This document shows positions 16,656 to 61,620 of a stretch of 64,000 nucleotides of DNA, in pieces; the first letter of the stretch is position 1; every line of letters starts with the position of its first letter. The position numbers were made by a program, and so were the translations under genes. Source of the DNA: Isurus oxyrinchus. Taxonomy: Eukaryota. Below the pieces are notes generated by a model that searched no databases, had not been told where the DNA came from, and worked only from the letters and a program-made list of their open reading frames with translations. The DNA is taken from positions 185,318,001-185,382,000 of the forward strand of contig JANJGN010000005.1 of NCBI GenBank assembly GCA_026770705.1. Direction: 5' to 3'.

Positions 16656-16984
16656 CTTCTCCTAAAGTGCAGGCTCCACCCTTCTTTAAGACCCTCACAG
16701 AGGACGCTTTGTTAGATAGAACACACTTGAAATTAAACTACTTGATGCTATTAAAAGATAGTTTGAGTTAAGACTATCTTGTAAATGAACATTTCCAACT
16801 CCATGAAGGGCATTTTTAAGATGGCAGCATTTTGCTTCTAGAAAGAGAAATCTTATAGTTATCCAGATTGCTCATGACATTATCCAGCTTAAAGTTACCA
16901 GCCCTCCAATATTGACCTGGAGTTCACCGGAATTAAATAAAGACTAACCTTGTGTTATATCATCACAAGCAACAGAGGAGAAAA

Positions 16985-18125
16985 AGTCCTCTCCCTCCCA
17001 GAACCTTGATAAGGTCCCCCTTGTCCTCACTTATCACCCCACCAGCCTCCACATTCAAAGGATCATCCTCCACCATTTCTGCCAACTCCAGCATGATGCC
17101 ACCACCAAACACATCTTCCCTTCACCCCACCTGGCGGCTTTCTGCAGGGATCGTTCCCTCTGGGACACCCTGGTCCACTCCTCTATCACCCCCTATACCT
17201 CAGACCCCTCCAACGGCACCTTCCCATGCAATTGCAGAAGGTGCAACACCTGCTCCTTTATTCCCCCCCACCCACCCCTACCTCACCATCCAAGGGCCCA
17301 AACACTCCTTTCAAGTGAAGCAGCATTTCACTTGCACTTCCCTCAATTTAGTCTACTGCATTTGCTGCTCCCAATGCGGTTTCCTCTACATTGGAGACAC
17401 CAAACACAGACTGGGTGATCACTTTGTGCAACACCTTTGGTCTGTCCGCAAGCATTACCCAGACCTCCCTGTCGCTTGCCATTTCAACACTCCACCCTGC
17501 TCTCATGCCCACATGTCCGTCCTTGGCCTGCTGCATTGTTCCAGTGAAGCCCAACGCAAACTGGAGGAACAGCATCTCATCTTCCGACTAGGCACTTAAC
17601 AGCCTTCCGGACTGAATATTGAGTTCAACAATTTTAGATCATGAGCTCCCTCCTCCATCCCCACCCCCTTCTGATCCCCCTTTTTCCAATAATTTATAAC
17701 TTTTTTTACAATTTTTTTTTCTTTTCCCTCCTATTTTTAAATTTATTTCGATCTATTATTTCATCTCCACCTTTTAGCCCATTTCAATCCCTTCCCCTCA
17801 CCCCACCCCCACTAGGGCCATCTGCCACTAGCTTGCTTCCCTTAATGTCCCCTATTAGCCCATCCTTTAGATAATATCACCACCGTCAACACCCCTTTGT
17901 CCTTTTGTCTATGACATCTTTGGCAGTCTCTTCTTGGCCTCCACCTATCACTGGCCTCCTATCGAGCTCTCCTGTCCCACGCCTTCTACCAGCTTATATT
18001 TCATCGCATTTCTATATGTCTTAGTTCTGATGTAGGGTCATACAGACTCGAAACGTCAACTGTGTCCCTCTCCGCAGATGCTGTCGGACCTGCTGAGTTT
18101 TTCCAGGTAATTTTGTTTTTGTTCT
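16985..18125 (+). mobile_element. Penelope-like element, 5'-truncated: GIY-YIG endonuclease remnant, 3' UTR and hammerhead motif
   Basis: ORF 16952..17599 contains FTCTSLNLVYCICCSQCGFLYIGDTKHRLGDHFVQHL...EQHLIFRLGT*QPSGLNIEF. An 11-bp TSD agaggagaaaa lies at 16974-16984 and 18126-18136. Confidence 0.9.
18023..18061 (+). ncRNA. Minimal type I hammerhead ribozyme motif (A9 appears mutated)
   Basis: AGUU-CUGAUGU-A-GGGUC-AUACA-GACUC-GAA-ACGU-C-AACU: stem I AGUU/AACU, stem II GGGUC/GACUC, palindromic ACGU as stem III. Confidence 0.7.
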
Positions 18126-18579
18126 AGAGGAGAAAATGTGGTTGGGGGGATTAAAAACATGGTGCATTTTGGTCAACTCCTTTGGACACTTCTGTTTCTT
18201 AAGTATAAAAGTATTGCCATGGATGTGTCAAACGACCAATAATGGGAGCATGGGGGCGGGGCAATTGGAGGTGGGAGATCATGTGATGAAACCGGGAATT
18301 CATCCAACCAAAGTTGGCAACCCTGACCCAGCCTGATATCATTACAAACAGCAGCACCAAACAAGACAATGAGAAATATTTAGCAATGACAGTGTGGTGA
18401 TTTGTATTGGATTTGATTTGAGTTGCTTCTATTGTGTCTCCTGAAGCTTATGGGATCTCTTTGACATCCCCTTGGGCAGAAAGCCATTGAAAACCAGCTT
18501 TCAAACATGCTTAATAAATGTAACACAAGTAACTGTTCTTACACGATGTGCTTTTATCTTGGCTGTGCTGTGTGCCTGA

Positions 18580-39975: not shown

Positions 39976-40714
39976 TTAGAATTTTTCAGGACAGAAGGAG
40001 GCCACTCAGCCCATTGAGTCTGTGCCCGACCAGAAGATTCCGACCCTGGTTCTCTTATAAATGATCTGAAACCTGTGTCTTCTGGTCATTGGCCACCTGA
40101 CAGTGAAAACATTTTCCCACTCATTTATCAAAACTCCTTGCAACTCTGAGCACCTTATATTATAAATCTCCCTCTAAACCTTCTCTGCTCTAAGGAGAGC
40201 AATCCCAGCAATCCACATCACTGAAGCCCCTCAATGGTACCAACCTTGAGGACGTTCGCTGACATGAGGCTCCACAAATGTTGTCGGTCGTCTGAGCCAC
40301 TGGATTGTGGTTTCAATGATATAGGAAGACACTCCAGGGAAGTGTTGAGGTACAGGTAAGTGCCACTGCCTTGATCACATGCTGAATTGAGCCCTATCTG
40401 CCCATTCTAAAGGCTCAGTTGGATATCAAACCTCCCACGACGTTACTGAACGAGGGCAAAATTCTCCTGGTGTCCCGACCAACATTCTGCCTTCACCTCA
40501 AATCACAAAGAACAAATGAGCTGCTAATTCCTCTCATTCCTTGCCTACATCTCAACAGTTAGTGCACACCAAAGTAAGTCATTTAATATGAAGCACGAAA
40601 TGAAATTTTCCGGCCGACATGATAAGACACTAAAGCAAGTAAGCCTTTCCACTACAAAAACAGAATTACCTGGAAAAACTCAGCAGGTCTGGCAGCTTCG
40701 GCGGAGAAGAAAAG

Positions 40715-40753
40715 AGTTGACATTTCGAGTCCTCATGACCCTTCGACAGAACT
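40715..40753 (-). ncRNA. Hammerhead-like motif (CUGUCGA core)
   Basis: Minus strand reads AGUU CUGUCGA A GGGUC AUGAG GACUC GAA AUGU C AACU. Confidence 0.55.
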
Positions 40754-41277
40754 TGAGTGAATCCAAGGAAGGGGTGAAATATAAGCTGATTTAAGGTGTT
40801 GGGGGGGGGGGTGGTGGGTTGGGTGGGGGGAGAGAAGTGGAGGGGGGGTGGTGTGGTTGTAGGGACAAACAAGCAGTGATAGAAGCAGATCATCAAAAGA
40901 TGTCACAGACAACAGAACAAAAGAACACATAGGTGTTAAAGTTGGTAATATTACCTAAACGAATGTGCTAATTAAGAATGGACGGTAGGGCACTCAAGGT
41001 ATAGCTCTAGTGGGGGTGGGGGGATCATAAAAGATTTAAAAATAATGGAAATAGGTGGGAAAAGAAAAATCTATATAATTTATTGGAAAAAACAAAAGGA
41101 AGGGGGAAACAGAAAGGGTGTGGGGATGGAGGAGGGAGTTCAGGACCTAAAGTTGTTGAATTCAATATTCAGTCCGGAAGGCTGTAAAGTGCCTAGTCGG
41201 AAGATGAGGTGCTGTTCCACCAGTTTGCGTTGGGCTTCACTGGAACAATGCAGCAAACCCTTTCTTGGATTCACTCA

Positions 41278-41316
41278 AGTTCTGTCGAAGGGTCATGAGG
41301 ACTCGAAACGTCAACT
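41278..41316 (+). ncRNA. Hammerhead-like motif (CUGUCGA core)
   Basis: AGUU CUGUCGA A GGGUC AUGAG GACUC GAA ACGU C AACU. Confidence 0.62.
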
Positions 41317-44099
41317 CTTTTCTTCTCCGCCAATGCTGCCAGACCTGCTGAGTTTTTCCAGGTAATTCTGTTTTTGTTTTGGATTTCCAGCATCCGCAGT
41401 TTTTTTATTTTAAGCCTTTCCACTAGATTGGTGTACCTTTCACCTATTCAGCACCTTACTGTTTGAGATGCTGAATCCACATTAAATAGCTGGATTACCA
41501 GCAAACCTCCTCTTGCCCGTATTACATTTAAACAAATGTATCAGTTGCCTGACACTAAAGAATTTTGTGGAATTTTGGGGTTCTTGCCAACAGCCACTGG
41601 ACACCAGAACCTGAATGAGATTACGGCTCAGACCCCAATCTTGCAGATGGCCAGCATTGAATGGCATGTGCTATATTTACAGCTGCCAATCAGATGTCAC
41701 TGAGGAATGCAGAGTGTAAACTAGGAAGTGTAAGTTAGATTGTTTAATTCAATATAAAATCATGCACAGAATGAGAAATTAAGAGTTGGGAATAAAGACG
41801 TGAATAAGAAAGAGAGAGATAAAAGAGAGAAAGAAAGTATAAAAAAATTACTTTAACTATTTCTTTTTCAATCTCCAACTATAATTAAAATCTTAAGGAA
41901 CGTGACTCCACACTTGTGAATTTCATTTTCAGTACTAGAAAGGTTGTTTGACAGTGGTTAAGACTTAACATGCCTTTAAAATAGTCGCTTACATTTGAAT
42001 GGGCTAGCCCTACTTTTTTCTGGCATTTTGAATGGCTAACCAGGGGGTAAGTACCAGAATTTCACCCCTTCCATGCATATGAATGCTGAATCTCTCAGCG
42101 AGATACTGGTGTGGTAAAGCTTGTGGAGGATGAGGGCAAATTGGCAGCAACTTCCTGACTCCCACCTTCAACTGAACATGTGTGGACACACGGTAGCTGC
42201 TGTTGAATGTACTCCATAGTCCTGGCAAGGCTGACAGCCTGACCATGATGTGCAAAATTCTGACTGTTGGATTGTGCCAATGAAGTGCCAATGCTGTTAT
42301 GGTAAACAATGCCACGTGTCCCTTATTTACATTCCTGTTAACCTGAATTTTAAATTGATTGCCATCACAGTGTCCCTTGCTCATCTTTTGTGTGCGCAGG
42401 TCCTAACTAAACAGGTTGTACCCCCTCCATTCAATGTGAAAAAAATGCTTCAAATGTTACTTTTTTGTGGTATGGAGCAGGAGCACATAAACATTTTGGT
42501 TTGTATATCGCATTGGATGCCTTCTCTCTGTCATTTGGCTTTGCCAATCACAAAGCCAAAGAGCAGAGGATTCCGTGGTTATCCATACTGAGTATAATTT
42601 ACACAAGCAATTGAGAGGGAAACACTAAGGACTGGGGAGGGAGGGTCTTAAAAACCCAAGGGGAGCAGCTAGATAAGCACATGAAGGGGTAAGGAGGAAG
42701 AACCATGTGCCGGGAGGGTGAGATAAAGTAGGATCAAAAAGGGCTCGTGTGGATCTTAAATGGACAAGTTGGGCCGAATGGTTTTATTCCGTGCTGTGCA
42801 TTTGATTTAATTCTAGGTAATTGGTCATGCTCAAAGCCAGCATTGGGACTCCAACAAGTTGCAAAGCTTTGGCTTCAGGGAGATCCCTTCACTCTTTTGT
42901 CACTAGATGAAGTTCCATTTCTCTATAATTAACAGAGAACATATCAAAGCAATCTCTAGAAACTGGGTGCTTTGTCCTCTGTAAGCACCGATGCTTAATA
43001 CAATGTTCGATTGATATCCTGGGTCCTTCACTCAATTACCTTCAGGTGTTGAGGAAGAAATTTCACAGGAGCTTTATCCACTCAGAAGTTTTACCTGTGG
43101 CTGTTCACCTTCCTCAGGAGATTAAATAAAGTGGAGAGAGCCCATGACAGTGCAAATTGTACAAGGTCTGTTGAGAGTTGAATGAGCTCAGAGGGCCAAA
43201 GGGTATTTTCCATGTCCCTACTTTATGACCTTAATAATAATTTTATGATGTTTCAGTCCGGTTTGGCTCATAACTTTCGCAAAATACCCAACGGGCTCAA
43301 GGAGGAGCAGAGGTGGTGGGGGAAAGCAGATTTTACAGTCTTACACACACAAAAAAAAAATCCTCTGTTTTTTGCAGACTTAATGGTCACTCTGGGACCT
43401 ATTTCCTGCTCTCGGTTAACTTTACCAGAAAGTTAGATATAAAGGTGTGCGAAACCCTTAAAAAATAACAACTGCAAATTGATGTCAGTGCTTTTTTCTT
43501 AAATAAAAGAGTTACTTCTGGTCTTTGAGGGTGACAAAGTAAGTGGATTAACCCATGTGTTTTCAGCACACCGATTTATACTCCCCACACAGTGGACCAG
43601 CCAATGAAATGGAAGAAGCAATAATCTTCAGAAACAATTGAAAACTACAATTAGGAGGAATTTAAACAGTTGAAATGGCACAGAGGGCAACTGTTGAGAA
43701 AGAAAAGTAGTCAGGATGATTATGCAGTGTTATGGATAAGAATGGTAGCTTTGTTGCTGAGGCACTTGATTCGCTACTTCCAGAATCTGGGAGATGGGGG
43801 AACCATGCTCGTGGCCAACTCTCTGGAGAAATCGATATGGTTAAGGAGGGAGTGCCAGAGCCAGCCATCAGTGTGCTAGCTATGGTCAACTTCCCTGCAA
43901 ACCCACAGCCCAAGTTAGTCTGGGGTCATTAGAATCACAGTGGGCTCTCCGTGAAAACTGGCTGCTCCCTAGCATCCTTAACATTCCACTTTTGCAAGAA
44001 CCTACCTCTGTTCCATGTGGAAGCCTCGCTTCCTGCCACCCCAGGAGTTGGCAGGGAACACAACCCGGCTGACTCCGTGTGCCCCGCAGCCATATCATG

Positions 44100-44717
44100 C
44101 TCAAATGAGCGTTAGGTGGCTCTAGGCGGGGTCTCCTGCCCTCACTTGGGAGGAAGTCCCGTCCTAGAGAGCTGTCAGCCAATCAGATTGGCTGGAAGTT
44201 CTCCAGCCCCTGAAGAAGAAATGCAGGGGGATGCCTGAGACTAAGTCCGGGCACCAGAGGCCCAGGTAAGTTCAAGGGGTCCGGAGCAGGGAGGGTAGGG
44301 AAGGGCTGGGGCGTGAAGAGGGCAATCGGTGCCTCGAGGGGAGGCTGGTGAGTGTCCAAAGGCCATCGGACTTTAAGGGGAGCGCGGGGGGGGTGGGGCG
44401 GGTGGGGAAGGCAAAGTCAGGCGGGGCTTCTGATGAAGGTGTCACCCACCCTTCCTGCCCGAAATGTAACTCTGTTGGTTTTCAGCCTTACCCCGTGCAA
44501 GTTCAATCCTCCCGCTAGCCTACAGATTTGAGGCTGTTGGGAAATGGCTCTTAAGGGCCTCAGTTGAGGCAAGGGCGGGCTTTCTATCCATGGCCTTGCC
44601 TGCCTCAGTGTAAAATCGCAGCGTGGGTGGGAACCCAGAGGGAATCCCGCCCCTTCAATTTCACACCCCCCTCCCCCGTCTAAAACCCGCCGGAGGGGGG
44701 GGCGTAAAATTCTGGCG
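44100..44717. mobile_element. GC-rich MITE-like element (family C)
   Basis: 'gaggaagtcccg..gagagctgtcagccaatcagattggctgg'; ends 'gtaaaattctggc'. Related to 58450-58925 and 63540-64000. Confidence 0.55.
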
Positions 44718-45964: not shown

Positions 45965-47844
45965 CTGTGAGTCGCTCCAATGCTTTTCTGTATTGGCTTT
46001 CTTGGTAAAGTATACCTTGCGTTTCTCATTCTTTACGTAAAGGCTTTTTTTTAATGATATCTCTTCCTTGATCTACTGTTTATGTTCAGGATTTGTCTTA
46101 CTTCTAACATTTAATTGTTTACAGGTAGAAAAGCCTTCCTTGCTCGAAACGTTTACTCTGTCTTTCTCTCCACAGCTGCTGTCGGACCTGCTGAGTTCTT
46201 TCCGGTAATTTTAGTTTTTTCTTTCAAAGAAACAGTGAGCTATGATTCTGTGGACTATCAAAGAAAAAAATCATCTAGCCCACTCTTTGAAAATGAAGAA
46301 AATATTGCCCACTTTCCCAAAGAAATCCCTAGTAGCTCCTTTACAGTGCTCTAAACAAATATGAAACAGAGCCACAGGAATCAATCAACCCGTGTCAGGG
46401 TAATCAAATTTCATAAGTAGAATATTATTGCTCCAATTGCTGTCGCATTTGATTTCATTTAGTTGGTTAATTCTATTCTCTTGTGTTCTTGGTTAGAGAA
46501 TGACTTTTCACTCAGATAATCTGTGAAGTATTTGAAATCTCGAGCAGTTGAAGGAAAATCGTTTTTTACATAAGCAACATCACTCACTGCTCACCGTAAG
46601 CTGTATTAAGATCTTTTCTGTGTAAGCCTTGCAGAAGCGGCCCTATTAACAGTAGGGATGCGGGGCTGTTTTTTTGGCTCCTTTGGCTGGTCAAGGGAAA
46701 CGCCAGATTGGTCAGAGAATTCAAACATTCCCAGTTGCAGATTGGTGAAAAGAGTCCTTGGCAAGGAAACATGAAATAGCTCATAGAACAAAATCGTTTA
46801 CTTTTTGCAACTGTGTGCTAGATGGCCTACATCTTGCACTACAATTCCAGTTGCATGTTTCTCTTTCCTCACGCAGTTTTCCGGGACATGTAAAGTGCCG
46901 CATTGTCTGTAAAGCCCTTTGAGATGTCCTGTGCTTGTGGAAGACACCTACAGTGCAAGTCTTTCCATTTTGTCTTTCTAATGCACCCTGGGTTACTGTA
47001 CTTTGAGCACTGGACAACCTGAAATCTTTCGAAAGGAAATTATTCTTTACAATTGCGTTTGATCTTGGCTTCTGCTCTAACCAGTAAGGGTGGCTGGATA
47101 GAGATGGTGATTGTGAGCCTTGGCTGATTCTGATGCTAGTTATCAAACCCTGACTGGTAACTCAGCAGCTAACTAACGATGAGTGCTGCTCTAACAATAC
47201 TCAGGAAGCTCAACACCATGCATGGCAAAGCAGCCTGATCGATCGGCCAACCCCCCACCCCCCCCACCCCCCAACAACAACCTTAAACATTCACTCCCTC
47301 CACCACTGGCACACAATGGCTACAGTGCGGACCATATACAGGATGTGCTGCAGCAACTCACTCCTTTCAGGTTTCAGAGAGCAATGGGGCCACAAAAGAA
47401 GTGAGATTTCGGAGACCAGATGGGCCATCAAAGCAGCGAAGTTTTTGAAAGCAGTGGGGCTTTTATGCAGTCTGTGGGTTCAGAGTTACGCTCCGAAACA
47501 AAAATTGAGGTGTGACATCAGAGCAGTGTTGTAAGTTAACTGGCTGGTGAGTATTGCCACTTCGGGACTAAGTCCAAACAACTGGCAGATTAAAAACTGT
47601 AAAAAACAAATCAGTATTAATAATAACTAACAAGTAAATAGATGGTGAGTCTTACCTTATTTTCAAGCAAGGTTTATTACAATATGTAAGGTGTGTTAAG
47701 TATTAGTAGGATTTATCAGTATTAGTTAGGTTGATTAATGGTAGTAAGGTTTATTAATAGCAATAGGGTTTATTAGTATTGGTACGGTTTATTAGTGTTG
47801 GTAAGGCTTATTAGCAATAGCAAGGTTAACTAATAAATAGAGAA

Positions 47845-48820
47845 ATGACAGGGCATCTTGTGCTATGTGGGAACTCCAGGATGCTACCTGTGTCCTGGAT
47901 AACCATTTGTGCAGGAAGTGGCAGCAGTTGCAGTAGCTTGAGCTCCAGGTTTTGGAACTTAAGCAACAGCTGATGTGAGTGTGGTGCTTGAGACTTTCTG
48001 GATACTGCATTTATAGATGAGATCACCCTGCAGCTTAAGACTATGCAGGGAGAGAGTGAAAGGGTGACCACCAGACAATGATAAAGAAACAGGCAGGTAG
48101 TGTAGGAGTCCCCTGAGTACATCCCACTCTCCAACCAGTATTCAGTTCTGAATACTGATGAGAGTGATGGTTCATGTGGGGAGTGCAACCAGAACCAAGG
48201 TACCACAGGTGGCTCAGCTGTACAGGGGGATACAAGGAAAACTGGAAGAGCAATAGTGATTGGTGATTCAATAGTTAGAGGAATCGAGAGGCATTTCCGT
48301 GGCCATGGACACGAATCCAGGATGCTGTGCTGCTTCCCTGGTGCCAGGGTCAAGGGTATCACTGAGCAGCCGCAAAGCACCCTGAAGGTAGATGGCAAAC
48401 AGCCAGCAATCATGGTCCACATTGATACAAACAACATAGGCAGAAAGAAACATGTGGTACTACAGTCAGAATTTAGGGAGCTAGGTAGGAAATTAGCAAG
48501 CAGGGCCTCAAAAGTATCAATCTCCGGATCACTCCCAGTGCCATCTACAAGTGAGTATAGAAATCGGAGAATAAAGCAGATGAATGCATGGCTGGAAAGA
48601 TGGTGCAGGAGGGAGAGCTTTAGATTCTTGGGGCATTGGGACTAGCTCTGGGGGAGATGGAACCTGTACTGGCTGGACAGATTGCATCTAAATAGAGCCA
48701 GAACTGAGTTCTTTGCAGGATGATTTGCTAGTTTTTTTTATTCATTCATGGGATGTGGGCTTTGCTGGCTGGGCCAGTATTTATTGGGGAGTGTTATCAA
48801 GAAGGGTTTCAACTAACTCA
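47845..48820 (+). pseudogene. CR1 ORF1: Cys-rich motif, coiled coil and SGNH/GDSL esterase (disrupted)
   Basis: CAMWELQDATCVLDNHLCRK..LELQVLEL. ORF 48256..48645 reads IGDSIVRG..CCFPGARV..VHIDTNNIG..NAWLERWCRRESFRFLGHW, followed by a D-x-LHLN motif. Confidence 0.85.
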
Positions 48821-49645
48821 GCAGGGGTGTGGGAACCAGGAGATAATATCAGAGAGGAATATCAAGGTGCACAGAATACTGGGAGAGATAGATTGCACTA
48901 GAATAAGGAATAGTAAGCGAATAGGTGGGTCAGAGTTAGGGAGAAAATAATAAAGTCTAAATCAGCATTACTACACATGTATGTGAATGCACAGAGTTTG
49001 GCAAATAAGATTGTGAATTACAGGTGCAAATTGCCATAAGGTTTTCGCTATAACAGAAACCTGGCTCAAAGAAAGGCAGGATTGTGTGTTAAATATTCCT
49101 GGATACAAGGTGTTCAGGAAAGATCAGAAACAGGGGGAGGATTGGCAGTATTGACTAAGGGGAGCATTGCAGTGCTGTAGAGAGAGGATGTTCCAGAGGG
49201 GTCAAGGACAGAATCTATTTGGCTAGAACTAAGGAACAAAAAAGGTGCAATTACATTGTTCAATGTAGTCTATAGGCCATCAATTAGTGGGAAGACGTAG
49301 AGGAACAAATCTGCAAGGAAATTACAGAGAGTAGTTATAATGGGGGATTTTAATTATCCAAACATAGACTGGGAAAGTAGTAGTGTAAAGGGCAGAGAGG
49401 GACAAGACTTCCTAGAGCGTGTTCAGGAGAATTTTCTAAGGCAGTATGTTTCCAGTCCAATGAGAGGGGATTTACTGCTAGACCTGGTTCTTGGGAATGA
49501 GGTGGGCTAAGTGGATCAGGTGTCAGCAGGAGAACAATTAGGGGACAGTGATCATTGTGTCATAAGGTTTAGGCAGTCTATGGAACAGAACAGTCCAGAA
49601 CAGTAAGAAAAATTAACTGGGGAAACCAACTTCAATGAGGTAAGA

Positions 49646-49928
49646 TAAAAGCAAAAAACTGCAGATGCTGGAAATCCAAAACAAAAATAAAAATAAAAAT
49701 ACCTGGAAAAACTCAGCAGGTCTGGCAGCATCTGCGGAGAGGAACACAGTTAATGTTTCAAGTCTGTATGCCTCTTCAACAGAACTAAGTAAAAATAGAA
49801 GAGAATATTTCACCTCTTTTCTATTTTTACTTAGTTCTGTTGAAGAGTCATACGGACTCGAAATGTTAACTGTGCTCCTCTCCGCAGATGCTACCAGACC
49901 TGCTGAGTTTTTCCAGGTATTTTTATTT
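49646..49928. mobile_element. Palindromic Penelope-terminus cassette inserted in CR1 ORF2, 15-bp TSD
   Basis: Two inverted PLE termini meet at ~49805-49812. TSD ttcaatgaggtaaga at 49631-49645 and 49929-49943. Confidence 0.9.
49833..49871 (+). ncRNA. Hammerhead-like motif (CUGUUGA core)
   Basis: AGUU CUGUUGA A GAGUC AUACG GACUC GAA AUGU U AACU. A more decayed mirror copy lies at 49748-49786 (-). Confidence 0.55.
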
Positions 49929-51654
49929 TTCAATGAGGTAAGAATGGACCTGGGCCAAATAAATTGAAGTTAAAGGTTGGCAGGAGAACAATAGGCTACC
50001 TTCAAGGAACAGATAGTTCAGACACAGCCTATGTATATTCCCTCGAAAGGGAAAGTTAGGGCAAACAAATCCAGAGCTCCCCAAATGACAATAGAGATAG
50101 GATTAAGATAAAGAAGAAAAAGTGCGCTTATAACAGATGTCAGGTAGAAACTACAATTGAAACCAGGCTGAATATAGAAGGTTCAGCGGGAGGTGAAAAA
50201 GCAAATATTGGAAGCAAAAAGTAAGTGTGAAGAGACTGGCAGCTAACATAAAAAGGAATCCCAAAGTCTTCCATTGGCATATAAATAGTAAAAGCATGGT
50301 AAAATGAAGCAAAGAGCTGATTAGGGACCCAAAAGGGGTTTTACACATGGAGGCAGGGTATTAAATTAATACTTTGCATTTATCTCTACAGGCAAAAAGA
50401 TGCTACGCAGGCTATGGTGAAAGACAAGGAGATTCGGTCACTAGAAGAGTTTAAAATTGATAAGGAGTAGGCAATGGATAGCTTGTCTGCACTTAAAGTT
50501 GATAAGCCACCAGGATTGGATGAGATACACCCAAGGATACTGAAGGAAGTGAGAATAGAAATTGCAGAGATACTGGCCATAATTTCTCAGTCTTCCTTAG
50601 ACTCAGGGGTGGTGCCAGAGGACTGGAGAATTGCAAATGTTACACACTTGTTCAAAATAGGATGTAAAGATGAGCCCAGCAACTACAAGCCAGTCAGTTT
50701 AATTTTGGTAGCAGGGAAACTTCTAGAAACAATAATTTGGGGCAAGATTAATAGTCACATGAACAAATGTGGGTTAATTAAGGAAAGCCAGCATGGATTT
50801 CTTAAGGAAAAATCATGTTGAACTGACATGCTGGAGATTTTTGAAGAGAGAACAGAGAGGGATGATGAGTCCAACATTGTTGATGTGGTCTACATGGACT
50901 ACCAAAACACATTTGATGCGGTGCCATACAACAGACTTGTGAGCAAAGTTATAGCTCATGGAATAAAAGGGACAGTAGCAACATGAATATGAAATGTGCT
51001 GACAGGAAACACAGAGTAGTAGTTAATGGATGTTTTTCGGGCTGGAGGAAGGTTTATAGTGGAGTTCCTCAGGGATCAGTATTGGCACTCTTTCTTTTCC
51101 TGATATATATTAATGACGTAGACCTAAGGCTCAATTTCAAAATTTGCAGATGATATGAACCTTGGAAACATTGTGAGCTGTGAGAATTTCAAAATGAAAT
51201 AGACAATTTGGTGGAATGGGCGGACATGTGGCAGATGAAGTTCAATGTGGAGAATTATGAAGTAACTCATTGTGGTAGAAAGAACATGGAGAAACAATAT
51301 AGAATAAAGGGTACAATTCTAAAGGGGGTGCAAGAGCAGAGGGACCTGGGTATACATGTTCATAAATCAAGTCTGTGATGACATCTGAAGTTTTACAGAG
51401 TGCACACACCTGTCAAGGTTTCATAATACGTCTAGGTGATTTCCTGTGGCATTGCGCACAATGAGTCAGAGGGTACAATATTCTGTAAGAATAAGGTTGA
51501 TTAACGTAGTGTGATGGGGAATGTTGTGTTCCATTGTTCTGTGTTTGACTATGTGAGTTTATTGCTATGATCTGGTTAGGGATCAGTAACGTTTTGTTTG
51601 AAGTAGACGAAGTGTGGAATCCTCGTTACCCACTAGGAGAATAAAGATACACGA

Positions 51655-54000
51655 TTCTCTGCTAGGCCTGGTACTGTGCAATAAGATAGGTTCAATTGAT
51701 AACCATAGTGAAGGCACACCTAGGTGGCAGTGAGCATAATATGATTGAATTTTACCTTCAGCTTGAGGGAGGTAAGAGTGGGTATGAGTATTTTAAACTT
51801 AAATAAGGGCTATTATGAGGGCATGAAAGCAGAGCCAGCTAACACAAACTAGCAAATGGGGTTAAGGGATAGGTCAACAGAGATGCAGTAGCAGAGTTTT
51901 AAAGGGATATTTCAGAATATACAGAATAGATACATTCCAATGAAAAAGAAAAATTCGAAGGGGAGGACCCACCATCTGTGGTTAACTAAAATATTTAAAG
52001 AAAGTATCAAACTTAAAGAAAAATCATGTAATTGCACAAAAACAGGCAGAATATGAAGATCAGCAAAGAATGACTAAAAGATTAATGAGAGAAAAATTAA
52101 GCATGAGAGGAAACTGGCTAGAGATACAAAAGTGGTTAGTAAGAGTTTCTATAGTTACTTAAATAAGAAAAGAGTTTTTTAAAAAAAGTGAGTTTTGGTT
52201 CTATAGAGAGTCCGTCTGAGGAATTAATAATGGAAAATACGGAAGTGACAGATGAATTGAACGGGTATTTTACATCAGTCTTCATTATGGAGGATACAAG
52301 GAACATCCCAGAAATAGCTGTAAATCAGGAAAGAAGAGAGAGAGGATCTCAGGAAAATTACAATCACAAGAGAAGTGGCATAGAGCAAATTGTTGGGGCT
52401 GTGGGCTGACAAAACCACGGGTCCTGATGGATTTCATCCTAGGGTCTTGAAAGAAGTGGCTAGTGAGATAGTTGATGCATTGGTTTTAACTTTCCAAAAT
52501 TCCCTGGATTTGGGGAAGGTTCCATTTGATTGGAAAAAAGTAAATATAACTCCTTTATTCAACAAGTAGGGGTGGGATGGGGGGGAGAGAGAAAGTGGAG
52601 AACCATGGCCAGTTAGTTTAACATCTGCCATAGGGAAAATGTTTGAAACAATTATTAAAGATGTTATTGCAGGGCATTTAGAAAAATACAAGGTAATCAG
52701 GCAGAGTCAAAATGGTTTTGTGAAAGGGAAATCATATTTAACCAATTGATGGGAGTTCTTTGAAGGAGTCACCGGTGCTGTGGATAAAGGAGAACCGGTG
52801 GATGTGCTGTACTTAGATTTCCAGAAGCATTTGATAAGGTGCCACATCAAAGGTTATTGCAGAAATTAAAAGCTCATGGTGTAAGGGTAACATAATGGCA
52901 TGGATAGAAAATTGGCTAGCTAACAGGAAGCAGAGAGCTGGCATAAATGAGTCATTTTCTGGTTGGCAAGATGTGGTGTGCCACAAAGATCAGTGCTGGG
53001 GCCTCAACTTTTTACAATTTATATAAATGACTTGAATGAAGGGATCAAAGGTATGGTTGCTAAATTTGCTGTTGACACAAAGATAGGTAGGAAAGTAAGT
53101 TGTGAAGAGGATATAAGGAGGCTGCAAAGGGATATAGATAGGTTAAGTGAATGGGCAAAGATCTGGCAAATGGAGTATAATGTGGGCAAATGAGAAATTG
53201 TCCATTTTGGCAGGAAGAATAAAAAAATAGCATATTTTCTAAATGATGAAAGGATGCAGAGCTCTGAGATTCAGAGGGATCTGGGTGTCCTACTGCATGA
53301 ATCACAAAAGGCTAGAATGCAGGAATAGCAAGTAATTAGGAAAGCTAATAGAATGTTATCGTTTATTGTTGGGGAATTGATTACAAAAGTTGGGAGGTTA
53401 TGTTTCAATTATCCAGCGCACTGGTGAGACCACATCTGGTATACTTCTGTACAGTATTGGTCTCCTTATTTAAGGAAGGATGTAAATGCACTGGAAGCAG
53501 TTCAGAGAAGGTTTACTAGACTAATACCAGGAATGAGCGGGTTGTCTTGTAAGGAAGTTTGGACAGGTTAGGCTTGTATCCACTGGAATTTAGAAGAGTA
53601 AGAGGCAACTTGGTTGAAACCTTTAAGATCCTGAGGGGTCTTGACAGGGTGGATGTGGAGAAGATGTTTCCTCTTGTGGGAGAATCTAGAACTGGGGTTC
53701 ACTGTTCAAAAATAAGGGGTTGGCCACTTAAGACAGTGATGAGGAAAAAAATTTTCTCAGAGAGTTGTGAGTCTTATGAACTCATTACCTCAAAAGGCAG
53801 TAGAAGCAGAGTCTTTGAATATTTTATAGCAGGGATAGATAGATTTCCCCCCTTATAAGGGGATGAAAGGTTTTTGAGGGTAGGAAGGAATGCGGAGTGA
53901 AGGTTACAATCAGATTAGCCATGGCCTTAATTCAGTGGCAGAGCCAGCTCAAGGGACTGAGTGGCCTACACCTGTTCCTAATTCGTATCTTTGAATGTTC
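51655..54000 (+). mobile_element. 5'-truncated CR1 LINE (ORF2 through 3' UTR), decayed
   Basis: GPDGFHPRVLKEVA, VLYLDFQK, GVPQRSVLGPQLFTIYINDL, KFAVDTK and DRLGLYPLEFRRVRG; 3' UTR 'gggactgagtggcctacacctgttcc'. Confidence 0.9.
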
Positions 54001-55314: not shown

Positions 55315-57239
55315 AGGGAAGCTGTGAAGGCAATTGTATGATATACGCAAGACTTTAAATACTCTTTTTTACAGATATATGGAGAAGGATTTTCAAATTC
55401 CAGTGGAGTTGGGACCAAGTGTGGGTGCAATTTAAGAAAATCCCAGCCCAGAGGTCATCACTAGATTCCGATGCCTCTGGGACAATCTGAAAGTTTCAAT
55501 GTTCTGGCAGGAAGAGGGAATGGGGTACATGCATGTGGCCAATTAATGGCCCATTAATCTCCTTTGGGAGCTCATTAATGGGCCGGGAGATGGGAGCTGC
55601 AGTCTTCAACAGCAATTTTGGCAAACCCGAACAGTCTGGTGCATGTTTCTGCATAGCTGTCATGTTCACTGCAGGGCAACAGAATTTTTTTTTCAATGCT
55701 TAAAACGATAAAGTACTTGGCCATCCTGTACCTCTATCACACCTCGGATATCATACATTGTACCAATGTTTTTCCCAGTGGCCCTCCACTTTGTAGCACT
55801 TTTTCTGCTGTCCCTCTGAGGAGCTGCCTGCTCTGATCAGCGAGGCAGTGACAGGCTCAACATGGCTACCACCTGCCTTTGCCACTGGTGCCAGGCAGGC
55901 AGCTCCTGCCTCCTGGAGACACTCAGCATCACTACCTGGGTGCCAAGTTTGCCTTGTGCTCAACTAGGGCACATACCTATAAATATAGTGTTGCATGAGC
56001 AATACAGTTGAAGTGCAGGATCAGGACCCCTCACTGGGTCCCCGACCCTGCTTTGACAATCTAGTCTATGAAACCTATATCATATCTTAAAATCAAGATT
56101 TTTAATTAAGGGAACAGTTTGCAATTTGAAACAATTGCGCTGGGAAAACATCACGAGAAAGCATTCTGCAGATTTTGACATTTCTCTAAATTTCCTCTTA
56201 AATTGGTAGGTACCTTCTGCAGAGTATCCGTGACAGAAATCATTTGAATTTTTGAAAGACTGCATAGGAAACTCAAGTATACAAGCTTAGGGCCTTCTGA
56301 TGGTATTACTAAGCATTCAGAAATTTTTGCTATACACTGTAATTGTACAAATATTCCCACAACTGTCCATTAACTGGTTTGTCGTTCCCACAGAAACTGA
56401 CTTTCATGAATGTCCTTTTCATTAACAACTGGCATTTGACTTGTTAACAGGGAAAGGTATTTCATATTGATATTCCTTAAAAAAAAACATTAAAAATTTT
56501 GAAGTGAGGCTTCTGCATCTAACAAACTATCATTCGAGGCGGGTAAATGAATAATGTCCTTGCTTTCCTCTCCTGGGTTAAACCACACAAGGTTAGCACT
56601 AGAAAAAGCTTTAAAATGGCCAAAGTATTAGTATTCCTGACACCATATATTTGTGTTTTCTCAGAGCGCTGGCCACTTATCACAGTTGAGATATAATTAG
56701 TTGTGAGACTTAAAGAAAAGAACAATTGACAGCAGTCAGCTTATACCTCTTTTGATAATCGAGTGCGGATAAAAAGGAAAAATTGAAAGTGGTGTGCAGG
56801 AAAAATATTGAGTGCAATAGATGGCTGAGAGCCGGCGTGTTTGAAACATTCAACAAATCATTCAAACACTGAAATGTTCTCTTCAATTGGACAGAGAAAA
56901 AAAAACACAGAGGAGCCAGTCCATTTGCTTTGTCATTCAGCTGCAAGGAGCTGGTATCTTATCCCTCCTGGTCATCAACATATTTTAATCCCTCAGGAAT
57001 GGCAGTGGGACAATATCCACCCCCTTCAGCATTGATCTCAGCTGGGAATTTCTGCAGGTGAAGAAATATTGAGGCAGAATTTCCTAGCAACATATCGATG
57101 AGTTTAATGACACTCACCACCTTTAGTTTGTAAATCATCCAGTAACTTGTGGCGAGGAACAGGTACCTCATGAGTTGTGAGCTGCCCACCTCCCCGCGAG
57201 TTTCATGAAATCAATACATTTGTACATTGGTGACCAAGT

Positions 57240-57700: not shown

Positions 57701-58449
57701 TGAAATTTAAATTGTGAGATATCCCATGTGGCTCAGTCTATTTCTCAAATTTAGGTTGATCATTCTTCTAAGGAGCAAATTTTAAAGGGATATGAGGAAA
57801 GAGCACGGAATAAGACCAACTGACTAGGTCTTTCAAAGAGCTGGTATAGGTAAATTACTTCCTGTGATGTATCATTTTGTGACTGTAAGATTAACATTTA
57901 ATATTTTATTACTCACCTCACTGAGGCCATGCCTTAATCTTCTGGCTAGTCTGTAGAACATCAGTTGCTGAACTGTCTTCTTATAGGTCAACCCCTTTCT
58001 ACTCCAGGGCCATTCTTGATGTTTATCTCTAATAAATAGATTCCAAACTAGCTGGTGAAATATGAAACTTGATACAAATCCCTTTCTTGATAGTTTCTTT
58101 ATTTACAGAATGCATCAATATAAATCTCTACCTTTTACCTACTAACCTGGTATCCCAGCAGTCCCTCCTTATATGTACTCAAGATATTTAATCTATCAAT
58201 ACCCACCACCTGTTTATCCTTAACCTTAACAATACAATAATCATAATATTAACAATCTCTACTTTCTTTACAAAGCTTTTATACGTCTTTTTGAGTTGCA
58301 CATAATGGACAATTGAACAACTAATAGTCACTGAAGGGCCTCCTCCAGCTTACTCATGTCTCCACATCAGTAGGAGTTGATCTATGAGAAGACAATTCAA
58401 CAACTGATGTCCTACAGACTAGAGAGAAGGTTGACATTAAGGTACATGA

Positions 58450-58925
58450 TAGTGCAGGGATTTTACCTGGGACAGGTGGAGGACAGTGCCAGCTATGAAG
58501 CCCAGAAGTTTTCACTGCTTGGGCTGTTGATAGGTAAGATGGGAGTGGGGGATGCTCACCTCCTTTCCAGGCCCCCTGTGACCATCTTTGGGTCCCTCCC
58601 CCAAGGTCTTCCCACGTTTGCCCTCCCCCTGCCCTGTCCACCCTGACTTTCTAGCCGCCTTGTTCTCCTTGCTGGGGCCTGCCAACCTAGCCTCTGCAAG
58701 ACCCTCCCACTTACCTTCACATCCGTCTCTATTCGTGTTCATCATCAGAGACTGGGTGCAGTCCCAGCAGTGGCCACTGCTCCTGGTGGAGATGCTGGGA
58801 TCAGGGAGCGACTGACCATTTGATTGGCTGGCAGCCCTCAAAGGCGGGGCTTCCTCTCCAGATGAGAGGATAACTTGGCTCATGACAATTAATGGCCTAA
58901 AATAAAACAAAATAAAATTCAGCCC
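58450..58925. mobile_element. GC-rich MITE-like element (family C, reverse orientation)
   Basis: 'gattggctggcagccctcaaaggcggggcttcctc'; TIR-like 'gcagggatttt' and 'aaaattcagccc'. Confidence 0.5.
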
Positions 58926-59538
58926 CAGAGTGTGATGCTGGTGGAAAGTGATTTCAATTCCACACTGTTAATCTCTTCAAAAATTGTGTAAACCCTTGTG
59001 CTACATAGAAAATTATAGAAGCAAATGAGCGAAGCTGGGGTATTGGAAGGGTCCAATAAGCATTATCCTTTGGACCTAGTGTAGGAAATAGCCCAGATTC
59101 CTGTCTTGCTATCAGCAGGCACACCTCAGTGACATTAAGTTACATGACAGTGTTGTAGAATTATGAAAAAGAATCACAGGCATTTGAATGGCGCATCTGT
59201 GGTCATTCATTGTTTCCTTTCTGGGCTGGAGAGGTTGATTGGCATTGCGCCATCATAAATTTGAATTACATGCATTACACATGTTATAAGATATAGTTTG
59301 GACAATCATACACATTAGGAGCACTTCAGAGGGGTCAGGCAACATCATAATCTCTAAGATTCAATTCTAAAATATGTGCACACACACCAGCTTGTTATTC
59401 ATTGTACACAGTTAGAACATGTACATGCCATACATGTATAATATATATTACTGAAAAGAGAGGCTTGGCAACCAATCAGCACCCTTTCCCCCTGCAGTAT
59501 AAATTGTTGTGATCATTTGAAATTTGGAATTCTTGCAT

Positions 59539-59574
59539 TTGTCCTGATGAGCGCAAGATGAAAAGCTTCAGCAA
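59539..59574 (+). ncRNA. Second-family minimal hammerhead motif (decayed) at the end of a different repeat (~59460-59600)
   Basis: UUGUC-CUGAUGA-GCGCAAGAU-GAA-AAGCUU-C-AGCAA has a canonical CUGAUGA/GAAA core and palindromic AAGCUU. Stems I and II are partly decayed. Confidence 0.55.
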
Positions 59575-59611
59575 CATGTCTCCCTTTTCAGCAATATTCA
59601 AGTTTGTACTA

Positions 59612-59836
59612 AACAAAAACAGAATTACCTGGAAAAACTCAGCAGGTCTGGCAGCATCGGCGGAGAAGAAAAGAGTTGACGTTTCGAGTCCTCATGAACT
59701 AGTTCTGTCGAAGGGTCATGAGGACTCGAAACGTCAACTCTTTTCTTCTCCGCCGATGCTGCCAGACCTGCTGAGTTTTTCCAGGTAATTCTGTTTTTGT
59801 TTTGGATTTCCAGCATCCGCAGTTTTGTTTTGTTTT
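59612..59836. mobile_element. Young palindromic Penelope-terminus cassette, 17-bp TSD
   Basis: Perfect 86-bp inverted arms at 59612-59697 and 59716-59801, plus a 35-nt tail. TSD tattcaagtttgtacta at 59595-59611 and 59837-59853. Confidence 0.92.
59701..59739 (+). ncRNA. Hammerhead-like motif (CUGUCGA core)
   Basis: AGUU CUGUCGA A GGGUC AUGAG GACUC GAA ACGU C AACU, identical to 41278-41316. Confidence 0.62.
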
Positions 59837-59860
59837 TATTCAAGTTTGTACTAGCAGCTT

Positions 59861-59900
59861 TATATATATATATATATATATATAAATACATATATAGATA
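59861..59900. repeat. (TA)n microsatellite
   Basis: About 12 perfect TA units, then degenerate. Confidence 0.9.
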
Positions 59901-60313
59901 GACACATACACTCATGTATGCAGGGGAGGGTGGAAATTGAGGTTATTCTATTTTGGTGAATCTTTCTTTCGTCTGAGATAAGTGCCATGGGAGACAGCAG
60001 GTTTATTTGAACGAATGATTTCACTTGATTTAAAATAAAGTGCTGTTCCACCACAATTTGAACTTCAGTAATTGTAACAAGGTGAACTGTGAGGCTGAAG
60101 CAGCTGTCAGCAGGCTTAGATATCAACTCTTGAGTGCACAGCCATCTACAACATGGGTGAGCAATTGCCTGGACATGTCCCTGTGCATGAAGCAACAGCC
60201 ATCAGGAGGACTGGGCAGCAGTGACTGAGCTGCTACTGTCTGATTCTATATATTTACTAAGCCTCTAAATAACCATGGTCCTCACAGAAGCAAACAAAGA
60301 ACTTGCATTTATA

Positions 60314-61040
60314 AGAACATAACAAATAAGTACAGGAGTAGACCATTCGGCCCCTCGAGCCTGCTGCACCATTCAATAAGATCAACGCTGATCACCTTGT
60401 GTTTCGATTTCCACATTCCCATCTAACCACAATAGCCTTTCATTCCCTACCCTAACAAGAATCTATCTAGCTCAGCCTTAAAAATATTCAATGACCCTGC
60501 CTCCACCACCTTCTGAGGCAGAGAGTTCCAAAGTCGCACAGCCCTCTGAGAGAAAAAATTTCTCCTCATCTCTGTCCTGAAAGGGCCACCCCTCATTTTA
60601 AAACAATGCCCCCTAGTTCTGGACTCACTCACAAGAGGAAACATCCTTTCGCTGTTCACCTTGTCAAGGCCGTTCAGGATCTTGTATACTTCAATCCAAT
60701 CACACCTCACTCTTCTAAACTCCAGTGGAAACAGGCCCAGTCTGTCCAACCTTCCCTCATAAGACAACCCACTCATTCCAGGTGTCAAACTAGTAAACCT
60801 CCTCTGAACAGCCTCCAATGCACTTTCATCCTTCCTTAAATAAGGAGACTAAAACCACACACAATATTTGAGGTGCGTTCTCACCAATGCCCCATATAAC
60901 TGAAGCATAAGACCCTTACTTTTATGTTCAATCCCTCTTGCAATAAAGGATGGCATTCCATTAGCCTTCTTAATTACTTGCTGTACCCGCATACTAACTT
61001 TTTGTCACTCATGTACTGGAACACCTAGATCCCTCTGTAC
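60314..61040 (-). mobile_element. CR1 LINE 3' end inserted in an L2/SINE-type tail
   Basis: ORF 60447..60818 reads EAVQRRFTSLTPGMSGLSYEGRLDRLGLFPLEFRR..FFSQRAVRLWNSLP. Flanks ttgcatttata and ttgcacctata are TSD-like. Confidence 0.9.
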
Positions 61041-61199
61041 CGTTGCACCTATATAGCATCTTTCATGACCTTAGTACGATCCCACGCACCCCTCCCCCCC
61101 CCCACCCACCCCCCGCACAGAGAGCTTCAGTAAGTTTAACCAGTGAGCTGAAAGAATAAAGAGTCCTGGGAAGACGCAGAAGGGATAATAGAATTTAAA

Positions 61200-61620
61200 A
61201 AGAAAGAATTTGCGCAGCACCTTTCACAACTCTAGGACATGCCAAGGCTCTTTACCGCCAGTTACCTACTTTGTGAAGTGTTGTCACTGTTGTAATATAG
61301 GAAATTTGGCAGCCAATTTATGAACAGCAAGCTCCCACAAACAGCAATCTAATAATTACCACTTAACCTGCTTTTGGGAATGTTAGTTGATGGATAAATA
61401 TTTGTCAAGACATAGGAGCTAACTCTCTGGTGCTTCTGCAAAATAATGCCTTGGGATCTTTTATGTCACCCTGAGGCCTCAATTTAACATCTCAACTGAA
61501 AGACGGACTGTTTGACAGTGCAGCACTCCCTCAGTCAGGCACTAAGCTATCAATTACAATTTGTACTCAAGTTTCTGGAATGGGACTTCAGCCCATAACT
61601 CACTGACTCTGACTGTTACT
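61200..61620 (-). mobile_element. DeuSINE/SacSINE1-like SINE
   Basis: 'gacagtgcagcactccctcagt' core and 'tgggacttcagcccataac..ctgactctga' head. Confidence 0.78.

Follow-up and report, generated by a model that had tools for sequence, protein, structure and literature searches.

The 64,000-nt window, the whole stretch of DNA analysed here, contains at 59595-59853 a short palindromic insertion, termed insertion A. It is probably a young and extremely 5'-truncated insertion of an autonomous Penelope-like element (PLE), with a palindrome that formed during integration. Insertion A is a small member of an already described PLE insertion pattern, not a new self-standing element. A preliminary description of this DNA had left the choice between a truncation product of PLE integration and a retrozyme-like element. 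The first option is favoured by the differing junctions of the inverted insertions, and the second is disfavoured by the lack of tandem units and by the minimal hammerhead core with U6. The locus is otherwise ordinary, and its value lies in the clean record of PLE integration that it provides.

Insertion A comprises 225 nt between two copies of a target site duplication (TSD), TATTCAAGTTTGTACTA, which are identical at 17 of 17 positions and cannot be extended on either side (Table 1). The two arms of 86 nt are exactly complementary (87 nt when the last base of the TSD is included) and are separated by a spacer of 18 nt. A tail of 35 nt is present on one arm only. A repeat of this kind is expected by chance with a probability of about 1e-10 for a 17-mer at a fixed place and of about 2e-7 for any 17-mer within 50 x 50 positions. 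Since the TSD alone has a chance probability of about 2e-7, a chance origin is excluded. The predicted fold of the whole insertion has about -177 kcal/mol, and both strands behave alike. All coordinates given earlier for the arms, spacer, tail, and TSD are confirmed, as is the absence of coding sequence, with no ORF at all in the 225 nt. A (TA)n microsatellite of 20 units (59861-59900) starts 7 nt beyond the right TSD.

Table 1. Features of insertion A and of related loci in the window
Feature	Position	Strand	Basis or remark
Older high-copy repeat, target of insertion A	59488..59600 (approximate)	+	Motif scan; contig matches
Left TSD, 17 nt	59595..59611	+	Overlaps 3' end of older repeat; contigs of the repeat match through 59595-59600
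Inverted tail-less copy of PLE 3' end, 86 nt	59612..59697	-	Ends in first T-rich tract
Head-to-head junction of insertion A with 10-nt palindrome GAACTAGTTC	59696..59705	.	Upstream parent variants compared
Minimal type I hammerhead motif	59701..59739	+	Compared with the min-HHR description in PMC4209133
Forward arm of insertion A, part of tailed copy 59701-59836	59716..59801	+	Sequence
PLE tail of insertion A, 35 nt, single arm	59802..59836	+	34-nt counterpart at locus B
Right TSD, 17 nt	59837..59853	+	Sequence identity with left TSD
Locus B, inverted	40640..41425	.	15-nt TSD
Locus C, related subfamily, flipped	49631..49943	.	15-nt TSD
Copy D, 5'-truncated, non-inverted, tail-less	16974..18136	+	11-nt direct repeat at 16974 and 18126

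As judged from sequence, insertion A is the 3' end of a GIY-YIG PLE. Further occurrences of its terminus lie in the window at 18022, 40753, 41278, 46143, 49787, and 49832. In copy D (about 16985-18125) and in the long arm of locus B (40655-41257), the upstream sequence is the final part of a reading frame, and the family is assigned to the PLEs because the terminus follows the end of a GIY-YIG ORF in both. What remains of the ORF in copy D is its broken GIY-YIG end (a frame at 17270-17596), for which seven homologues were found among 14 candidates, with 51-66% identity and one from little skate. Going by this single named homologue, the host is probably a cartilaginous fish. The Pfam GIY-YIG domain scores above the cut-off in one of the six proteins scanned (P0001) and weakly in three more, among them the window frame itself (E 0.042). 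The family protein has visible CCHH and upstream CX4CxxC motifs, the latter as CNCRRCNTC in copy D. Neptune and Nematis elements are described as carrying CX2-5CxxC upstream of a C-terminal GIY-YIG domain (PMC8557442). The motifs of the family point to a PLE of putative Neptune/Nematis type. The RT region is reached by none of the family copies in the window; an RVT_1 match is present in homologue P0003, though its gene model is perhaps chimeric. Across the family, the PLE features comprise a GIY-YIG ORF with CCHH (copy D and locus B), a hammerhead in the pLTR, a one-sided tail, and inversion with a TSD. A PDB search with the copy D frame returned chance matches only, and scans with family patterns gave no matches in metagenome contigs, viral contigs, or prokaryote genomes. 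A diverged fragment of the same terminus, tail-less and non-inverted, lies at 46143-46219 (+) with 79% identity.

The earlier inventory was right about insertion A but missed two sister inverted insertions, loci B and C, as well as an older motif at 59539-59578. Locus B has a tail-less minus arm of about 603 nt that extends into the endonuclease C-terminus. Its tailed plus arm measures about 153 nt and has a tail of 34 nt. Locus C has a tailed minus arm (49646-49804) and a tail-less plus arm (49805-49928). Insertion A and both sister loci follow a common plan: TSD, tail-less arm, head-to-head junction, tailed arm, and TSD. All four tail-less ends, including that of copy D, stop in the first T tract, and the ends of the insertions share 1-5 nt of microhomology with the TSD. 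The junctions, in contrast to this fixed plan, differ at three of the three inverted loci. The tailed arm of insertion A is identical to 41278-41401 of locus B at 123 of 124 nt; both thus belong to one subfamily, of which insertion A is the shorter product. Private upstream sequence amounts to 484 nt in the tail-less arm of locus B and to about 10 nt in that of locus C, and the opposite arm has a private tail. Neither arm at these loci is therefore a plain copy of the other.

Some features of the target sites are also shared. The reconstructed targets of insertion A (59609-59611/59854) and locus B (40652-40654/41426) read CTA|G at the end of the TSD, and CTAG is also present after the end of copy D (18124-18127). 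CTA|G at insertion ends is a possible cut preference, seen in three cases only. Locus C is enclosed by a decayed LINE (48106-53190, +), in which ORF1 has a GDSL-like match and frames for an endonuclease (49301-49507) and an RT (52951-53190) are recognisable.

The following course of integration would account for these structures. The GIY-YIG endonuclease of the PLE, which is suggested by copy D, would cut both target strands 17 nt apart, the distance given by the observed TSD. Each free 3' end would then prime reverse transcription on the 3' end of the PLE RNA. Use of a distal start site would yield the tailed arm, and a start about 35 nt further in would yield the tail-less arm; the ends themselves are observed. 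Both cDNAs would stop early, at about 139 and 86 nt, and be joined head to head by end-joining, after which gap filling would fix the TSD. Two separately primed cDNAs are favoured because each arm in loci B and C has private sequence. In vitro, an anole PLE protein cuts and extends both target strands, and two start sites of reverse transcription bound the tail (PMC11167929). Insertion by this protein needs no hammerhead cleavage (PMC11167929). As an analogue for insertion A, this system is limited in that it is a Poseidon element that primes without homology (PMC11167929), and the account of the mechanism in that report does not treat inverted insertions.

A second way of making the palindrome, which is also a by-product of PLE integration, is fold-back or self-priming. 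A single cDNA would loop at its truncated end and copy itself; copying would stop at the T tract by annealing to the second target strand, and later deletions would give unequal arms. The tail-less arm of insertion A lies wholly inside the tailed arm, as this route predicts, and the 10-nt junction palindrome could be the tip of a hairpin, followed by a 12-nt skip at GA microhomology. Junction palindromes are interpreted as self-priming in PMC3846280, and one joint in the public contigs (59754/59755) is a nearly gapless fold-back. The junction bases of insertion A, however, fit an upstream parent variant equally well (loose-end consensus at 59701, 2-nt loss). Moreover, each arm of loci B and C holds sequence that is absent from the other, so that an extra one-sided deletion would be required at both loci. 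We therefore regard fold-back as unlikely. Whether two primers or fold-back are used is a step left open by the in vitro work as described in PMC11167929. Because the family is very large and has very short, young inverted copies, counts of arm ends would allow a test between the two.

Of 24 public runs, all available as contigs, four guessed to be DNA (one sample, organism A) and ten of organism B contained at least half of the words. The word share is 0.88-0.89 in organism A and 0.62-0.63 in organism B; the lower share in organism B results from a flank divergence of about 1% (7 differences in 627 nt) and is uninformative on the presence or absence of the insert. Four of the 24 runs were aligned to 59200-60250, with 50-65 in 100 of each DNA run covered and 59853-59914 passed over as a repeat; no empty site emerged within this coverage. 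The numbers of aligned contigs per run (91,424, 47,369, 37,976, and 2,444) mean that the PLE family is very large. The junction of insertion A is part of the reference and cannot appear as a joint, so joint counts cover other loci. Each of the 15 joints listed of 468 runs from the left arm into either the spacer or the right arm; the arms measure 25-101 nt, and 14 distinct arm-end pairs are represented. These joints are read as inversion junctions of other loci. Loose ends with long unrelated flanks, in contrast, lie at 59800-59805 or at the mirror position 59609-59612 (24 listed of 1,015; DNA runs X4, X6, and X10). The end of the tail-less arm of insertion A in the first T-rich tract is thus common to other tail-less copies (loose ends 59609/59612 and 59800-59805). 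The clustered loose ends together with the varied joints indicate that copies have the outer tail-less end in common but vary at the inner junction. Of the RNA-guessed runs with a small word share, only X15 was aligned; the family is present in it, with nothing locus-specific to insertion A.

The same contigs bear on a third explanation, in which the palindrome is a self-standing non-autonomous unit whose transcript is re-integrated in full by PLE proteins acting in trans. The junction of the palindrome would then recur at many loci. Two junctions do reach 9-22 times the depth of flank contigs in two organism B samples, although contig depth is no copy number; the deep arm-end pairs are 59717/59766 and 59701/59758. 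One of them, seen from both sides, has a depth of 510 (X10) and 529 (X6) against 24-29 for flank contigs, and the other has 226 and 255. Up to four contigs share one joint in one run, and six of the 15 listed joints occur in both organisms. In a rotifer, pLTRs were enough for a host gene to be mobilised in trans (PMC3846280). Yet the family is so large that about half of one run yields 91,424 contigs, and shared descent or hitch-hiking in larger repeats explains the same joints, as locus C inside a LINE illustrates. No junction is common to any two of the three inverted loci of the window. Insertion A has neither foreign flank nor tandem units, and its ribozyme is predicted to be unfolded. A self-standing palindrome is hence very unlikely. 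The preliminary description had taken identical junctions at many loci as the mark of a palindrome that itself transposes; the junctions of the window and of the listed joints differ almost throughout (three of three loci; 14 pairs in 15 joints listed of 468), but the deep joints may reflect recurrence at some loci. A weaker form, in which some fold-back stumps are secondarily mobile as coding-free palindromes with a PLE end on both strands that PLE proteins re-insert whole and that need no working hammerhead, is a shade less improbable, but still decidedly doubtful. If true, such stumps would make up a MITE-like class of palindromic retroelements that move through RNA in cartilaginous fish, with the junctions found at 9-22 times the depth of flank contigs as its first representatives.

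That the palindrome is an assembly or library artefact is hardly credible. None of the 32 contig pieces listed (181,661 others unlisted) bridges the junction or either TSD boundary of insertion A, and the assembly may itself derive from the single DNA sample available for organism A. Against an artefact, insertion A is asymmetric, is flanked by an exact TSD of 17 nt, and has ends that coincide with those of other copies of the family. The sister loci, whose arms are aged and no longer identical, show that the structure exists in DNA. The arms differ at 4 of 119 positions in locus B and at 8 of 111 in locus C, with about half of the differences in CpG. In insertion A, they differ at 0 of 86 positions and contain four CpG each, in line with the young age proposed earlier. 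At every position where the arms of locus B differ from insertion A, the latter agrees with the state shared with locus B. Judged by these arm differences, insertion A is the youngest of the three inverted loci, an order that gene conversion between arms may have affected. Zero differences at 103 paired sites permit a divergence of up to 2.9%. Since this limit exceeds the divergence of about 1% between organisms A and B, insertion A is not datable relative to their split.

The hammerhead motif of insertion A has a helix I of 4 bp and a helix II of 5 bp (59713-59727) that starts from G10.1-C11.1, with pairs set by hand. One additional A follows A9, and helix III is only the palindrome ACGU. The GAAA box lies at 59728-59731, and cleavage is predicted after 59735. 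The motif had been called complete. It can indeed be drawn as a minimal type I hammerhead, but its core, CUGUCGA, has U at 59708 in place of the conserved A6, which makes the term too strong. U is found at core position 6 in five of the six family motifs in the window and is therefore inherited rather than a decay at insertion A. The U6 sites (59708, 41285, 40746, 49840, and 49779) span two subfamilies, and copy D (18023) has A6 but an altered position 9. A natural A6C variant of the hammerhead is slow, at under 0.1 per minute (PMC3088659). The term A6U for the hammerhead core was not found in our search of openly accessible papers. The spread of the young subfamily with U6 fits the reported insertion without need for hammerhead cleavage.

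The palindrome also affects the folding of the motif. Helix II has a predicted pairing probability of 0.97-0.99 when the motif is folded by itself. This falls to 0.21 within the right arm and to 0.0000 (to four decimals) within the whole insertion. With 24 of its 39 nt within the arm, the motif would be sequestered by the hairpin, as had been proposed. The hammerhead is a passenger of the pLTR and, by these predictions, very probably silent at insertion A. Minimal type I hammerheads of PLEs act as dimers and cleave poorly, and the motif of insertion A shows their traits (PMC4209133). In a two-copy cofold of this motif, a duplex that is not a hammerhead (-18.2 kcal/mol) is preferred over a partial hammerhead dimer without helix I (-13.7 kcal/mol); as evidence on the dimer, this prediction is only suggestive. 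A heterodimer with the older motif at 59544 was rejected, as the helix III palindromes differ and the older helices are mutated. No Rfam match reaches the gathering score across the window, and no hammerhead is among the 13 sub-threshold matches in 58000-61500. The best of these are hairpin models on the palindrome of insertion A and were rejected as chance.

The target of insertion A is the 3' end of an older high-copy repeat. This repeat has its own hammerhead-like motif (59539-59578, +; core 59544-59564) with CUGAUGA and GAAA boxes and a palindromic AAGCUU helix III, and its helices I and II are mutated. We infer that the repeat (59488-59600) is of PLE origin. PLEs tend to insert in or beside older PLE copies (PMC6765202), and the site of insertion A at the end of a hammerhead-bearing repeat fits this preference. 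Another motif of the CUGAUGA...GAAA type, with a different helix II and related downstream sequence, is found at 44430-44464 (+) and perhaps represents a third family. The window also contains older imperfect inverted pairs of 80-85% that are unrelated to the PLE terminus (57936-57996/58372-58432, 57301-57358/59203-59260, and 61271-61360/62119-62197).

The preliminary description had placed insertion A in a putative host intron, which was not found. No host gene is present among the 105 of 944 open frames scanned with Pfam, most of which were chosen by a crude composition score. Five of the scanned frames had matches, two to LINE domains and three below the cut-off. A short minus-strand frame (56962-57051, in the stretch 56962-57087) behind a splice-acceptor-like site was rejected as a candidate: it has no homologue and so may not be an exon. 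If either strand of insertion A were transcribed, an RNA hairpin of 86 bp would be expected to form, with the whole hammerhead on the plus strand only. Genomes with such copies have to cope with numerous perfect hairpins; wherever these are transcribed, they could enter RNA editing or small-RNA pathways.

Several known systems resemble insertion A in part. In LINE-1 twin priming, both target strands prime cDNA and an inversion arises between the TSDs, with the inverted piece taken from a different part of the RNA. Insertion A likewise appears to have been primed from both strands, but its two arms copy the same 3' end and give a palindrome. Non-LTR retrozymes resemble it in being small and non-coding, with a type I hammerhead, a relation to PLEs, and a long TSD. 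They are described as head-to-tail tandem units with a canonical efficient hammerhead in each and a circular RNA (PMC7229834; bioRxiv 10.64898/2026.07.22.740005), whereas insertion A consists of a single head-to-head unit whose one motif is minimal and buried. No tandem units with hammerheads were found nearby (58500-61000), where only the (TA)n array is present. A retrozyme identity was thus rejected, given the absence of tandem units, the single complete motif, U6, helices with a probability of 0.0000 in the insert, and no Rfam hammerhead.

The hammerhead shares with the minimal motifs of metazoan PLEs a short helix I, an extra base at 9/10.1, G10.1-C11.1, and a palindromic remnant of helix III (PMC4209133). 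Pairs of such motifs at distances of 100-700 bp on opposite strands are also on record for metazoan PLEs (PMC4209133). The family of insertion A differs from the motifs described there by U6 (five of six window motifs), and insertion A itself by having the whole motif on one arm only. A report of a hammerhead in a shark Penelope element was not found in our search, which was confined to openly accessible papers; one match used the word shark for the shape of the motif. PAc, the Poseidon element from Anolis, is similar in that its tail is delimited by two end points some 35 nt from each other, insertion makes use of both target strands, and the hammerhead lies upstream of the ends (PMC11167929). 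[quoted passage not shown]

A close match is seen with inverted insertions of EN+ PLEs (PMC3846280; PMC8557442 Fig. 2). The published inverted insertion has an inverted pLTR, a tail of 31 bp, and a TSD of 9-10 bp (PMC3846280), and PLE tails of 30-40 nt are reported (PMC8557442, PMC11167929). Insertion A shares with these insertions the head-to-head 3' end, the one-sided tail, the enclosing TSD, the 5' truncation, and the small junction palindrome, with a GIY-YIG ORF in longer copies. It departs from the rotifer inverted PLEs described there in having no ORF, and the TSDs of insertion A and loci B and C are 15-17 nt against 8-10 nt in rotifers.
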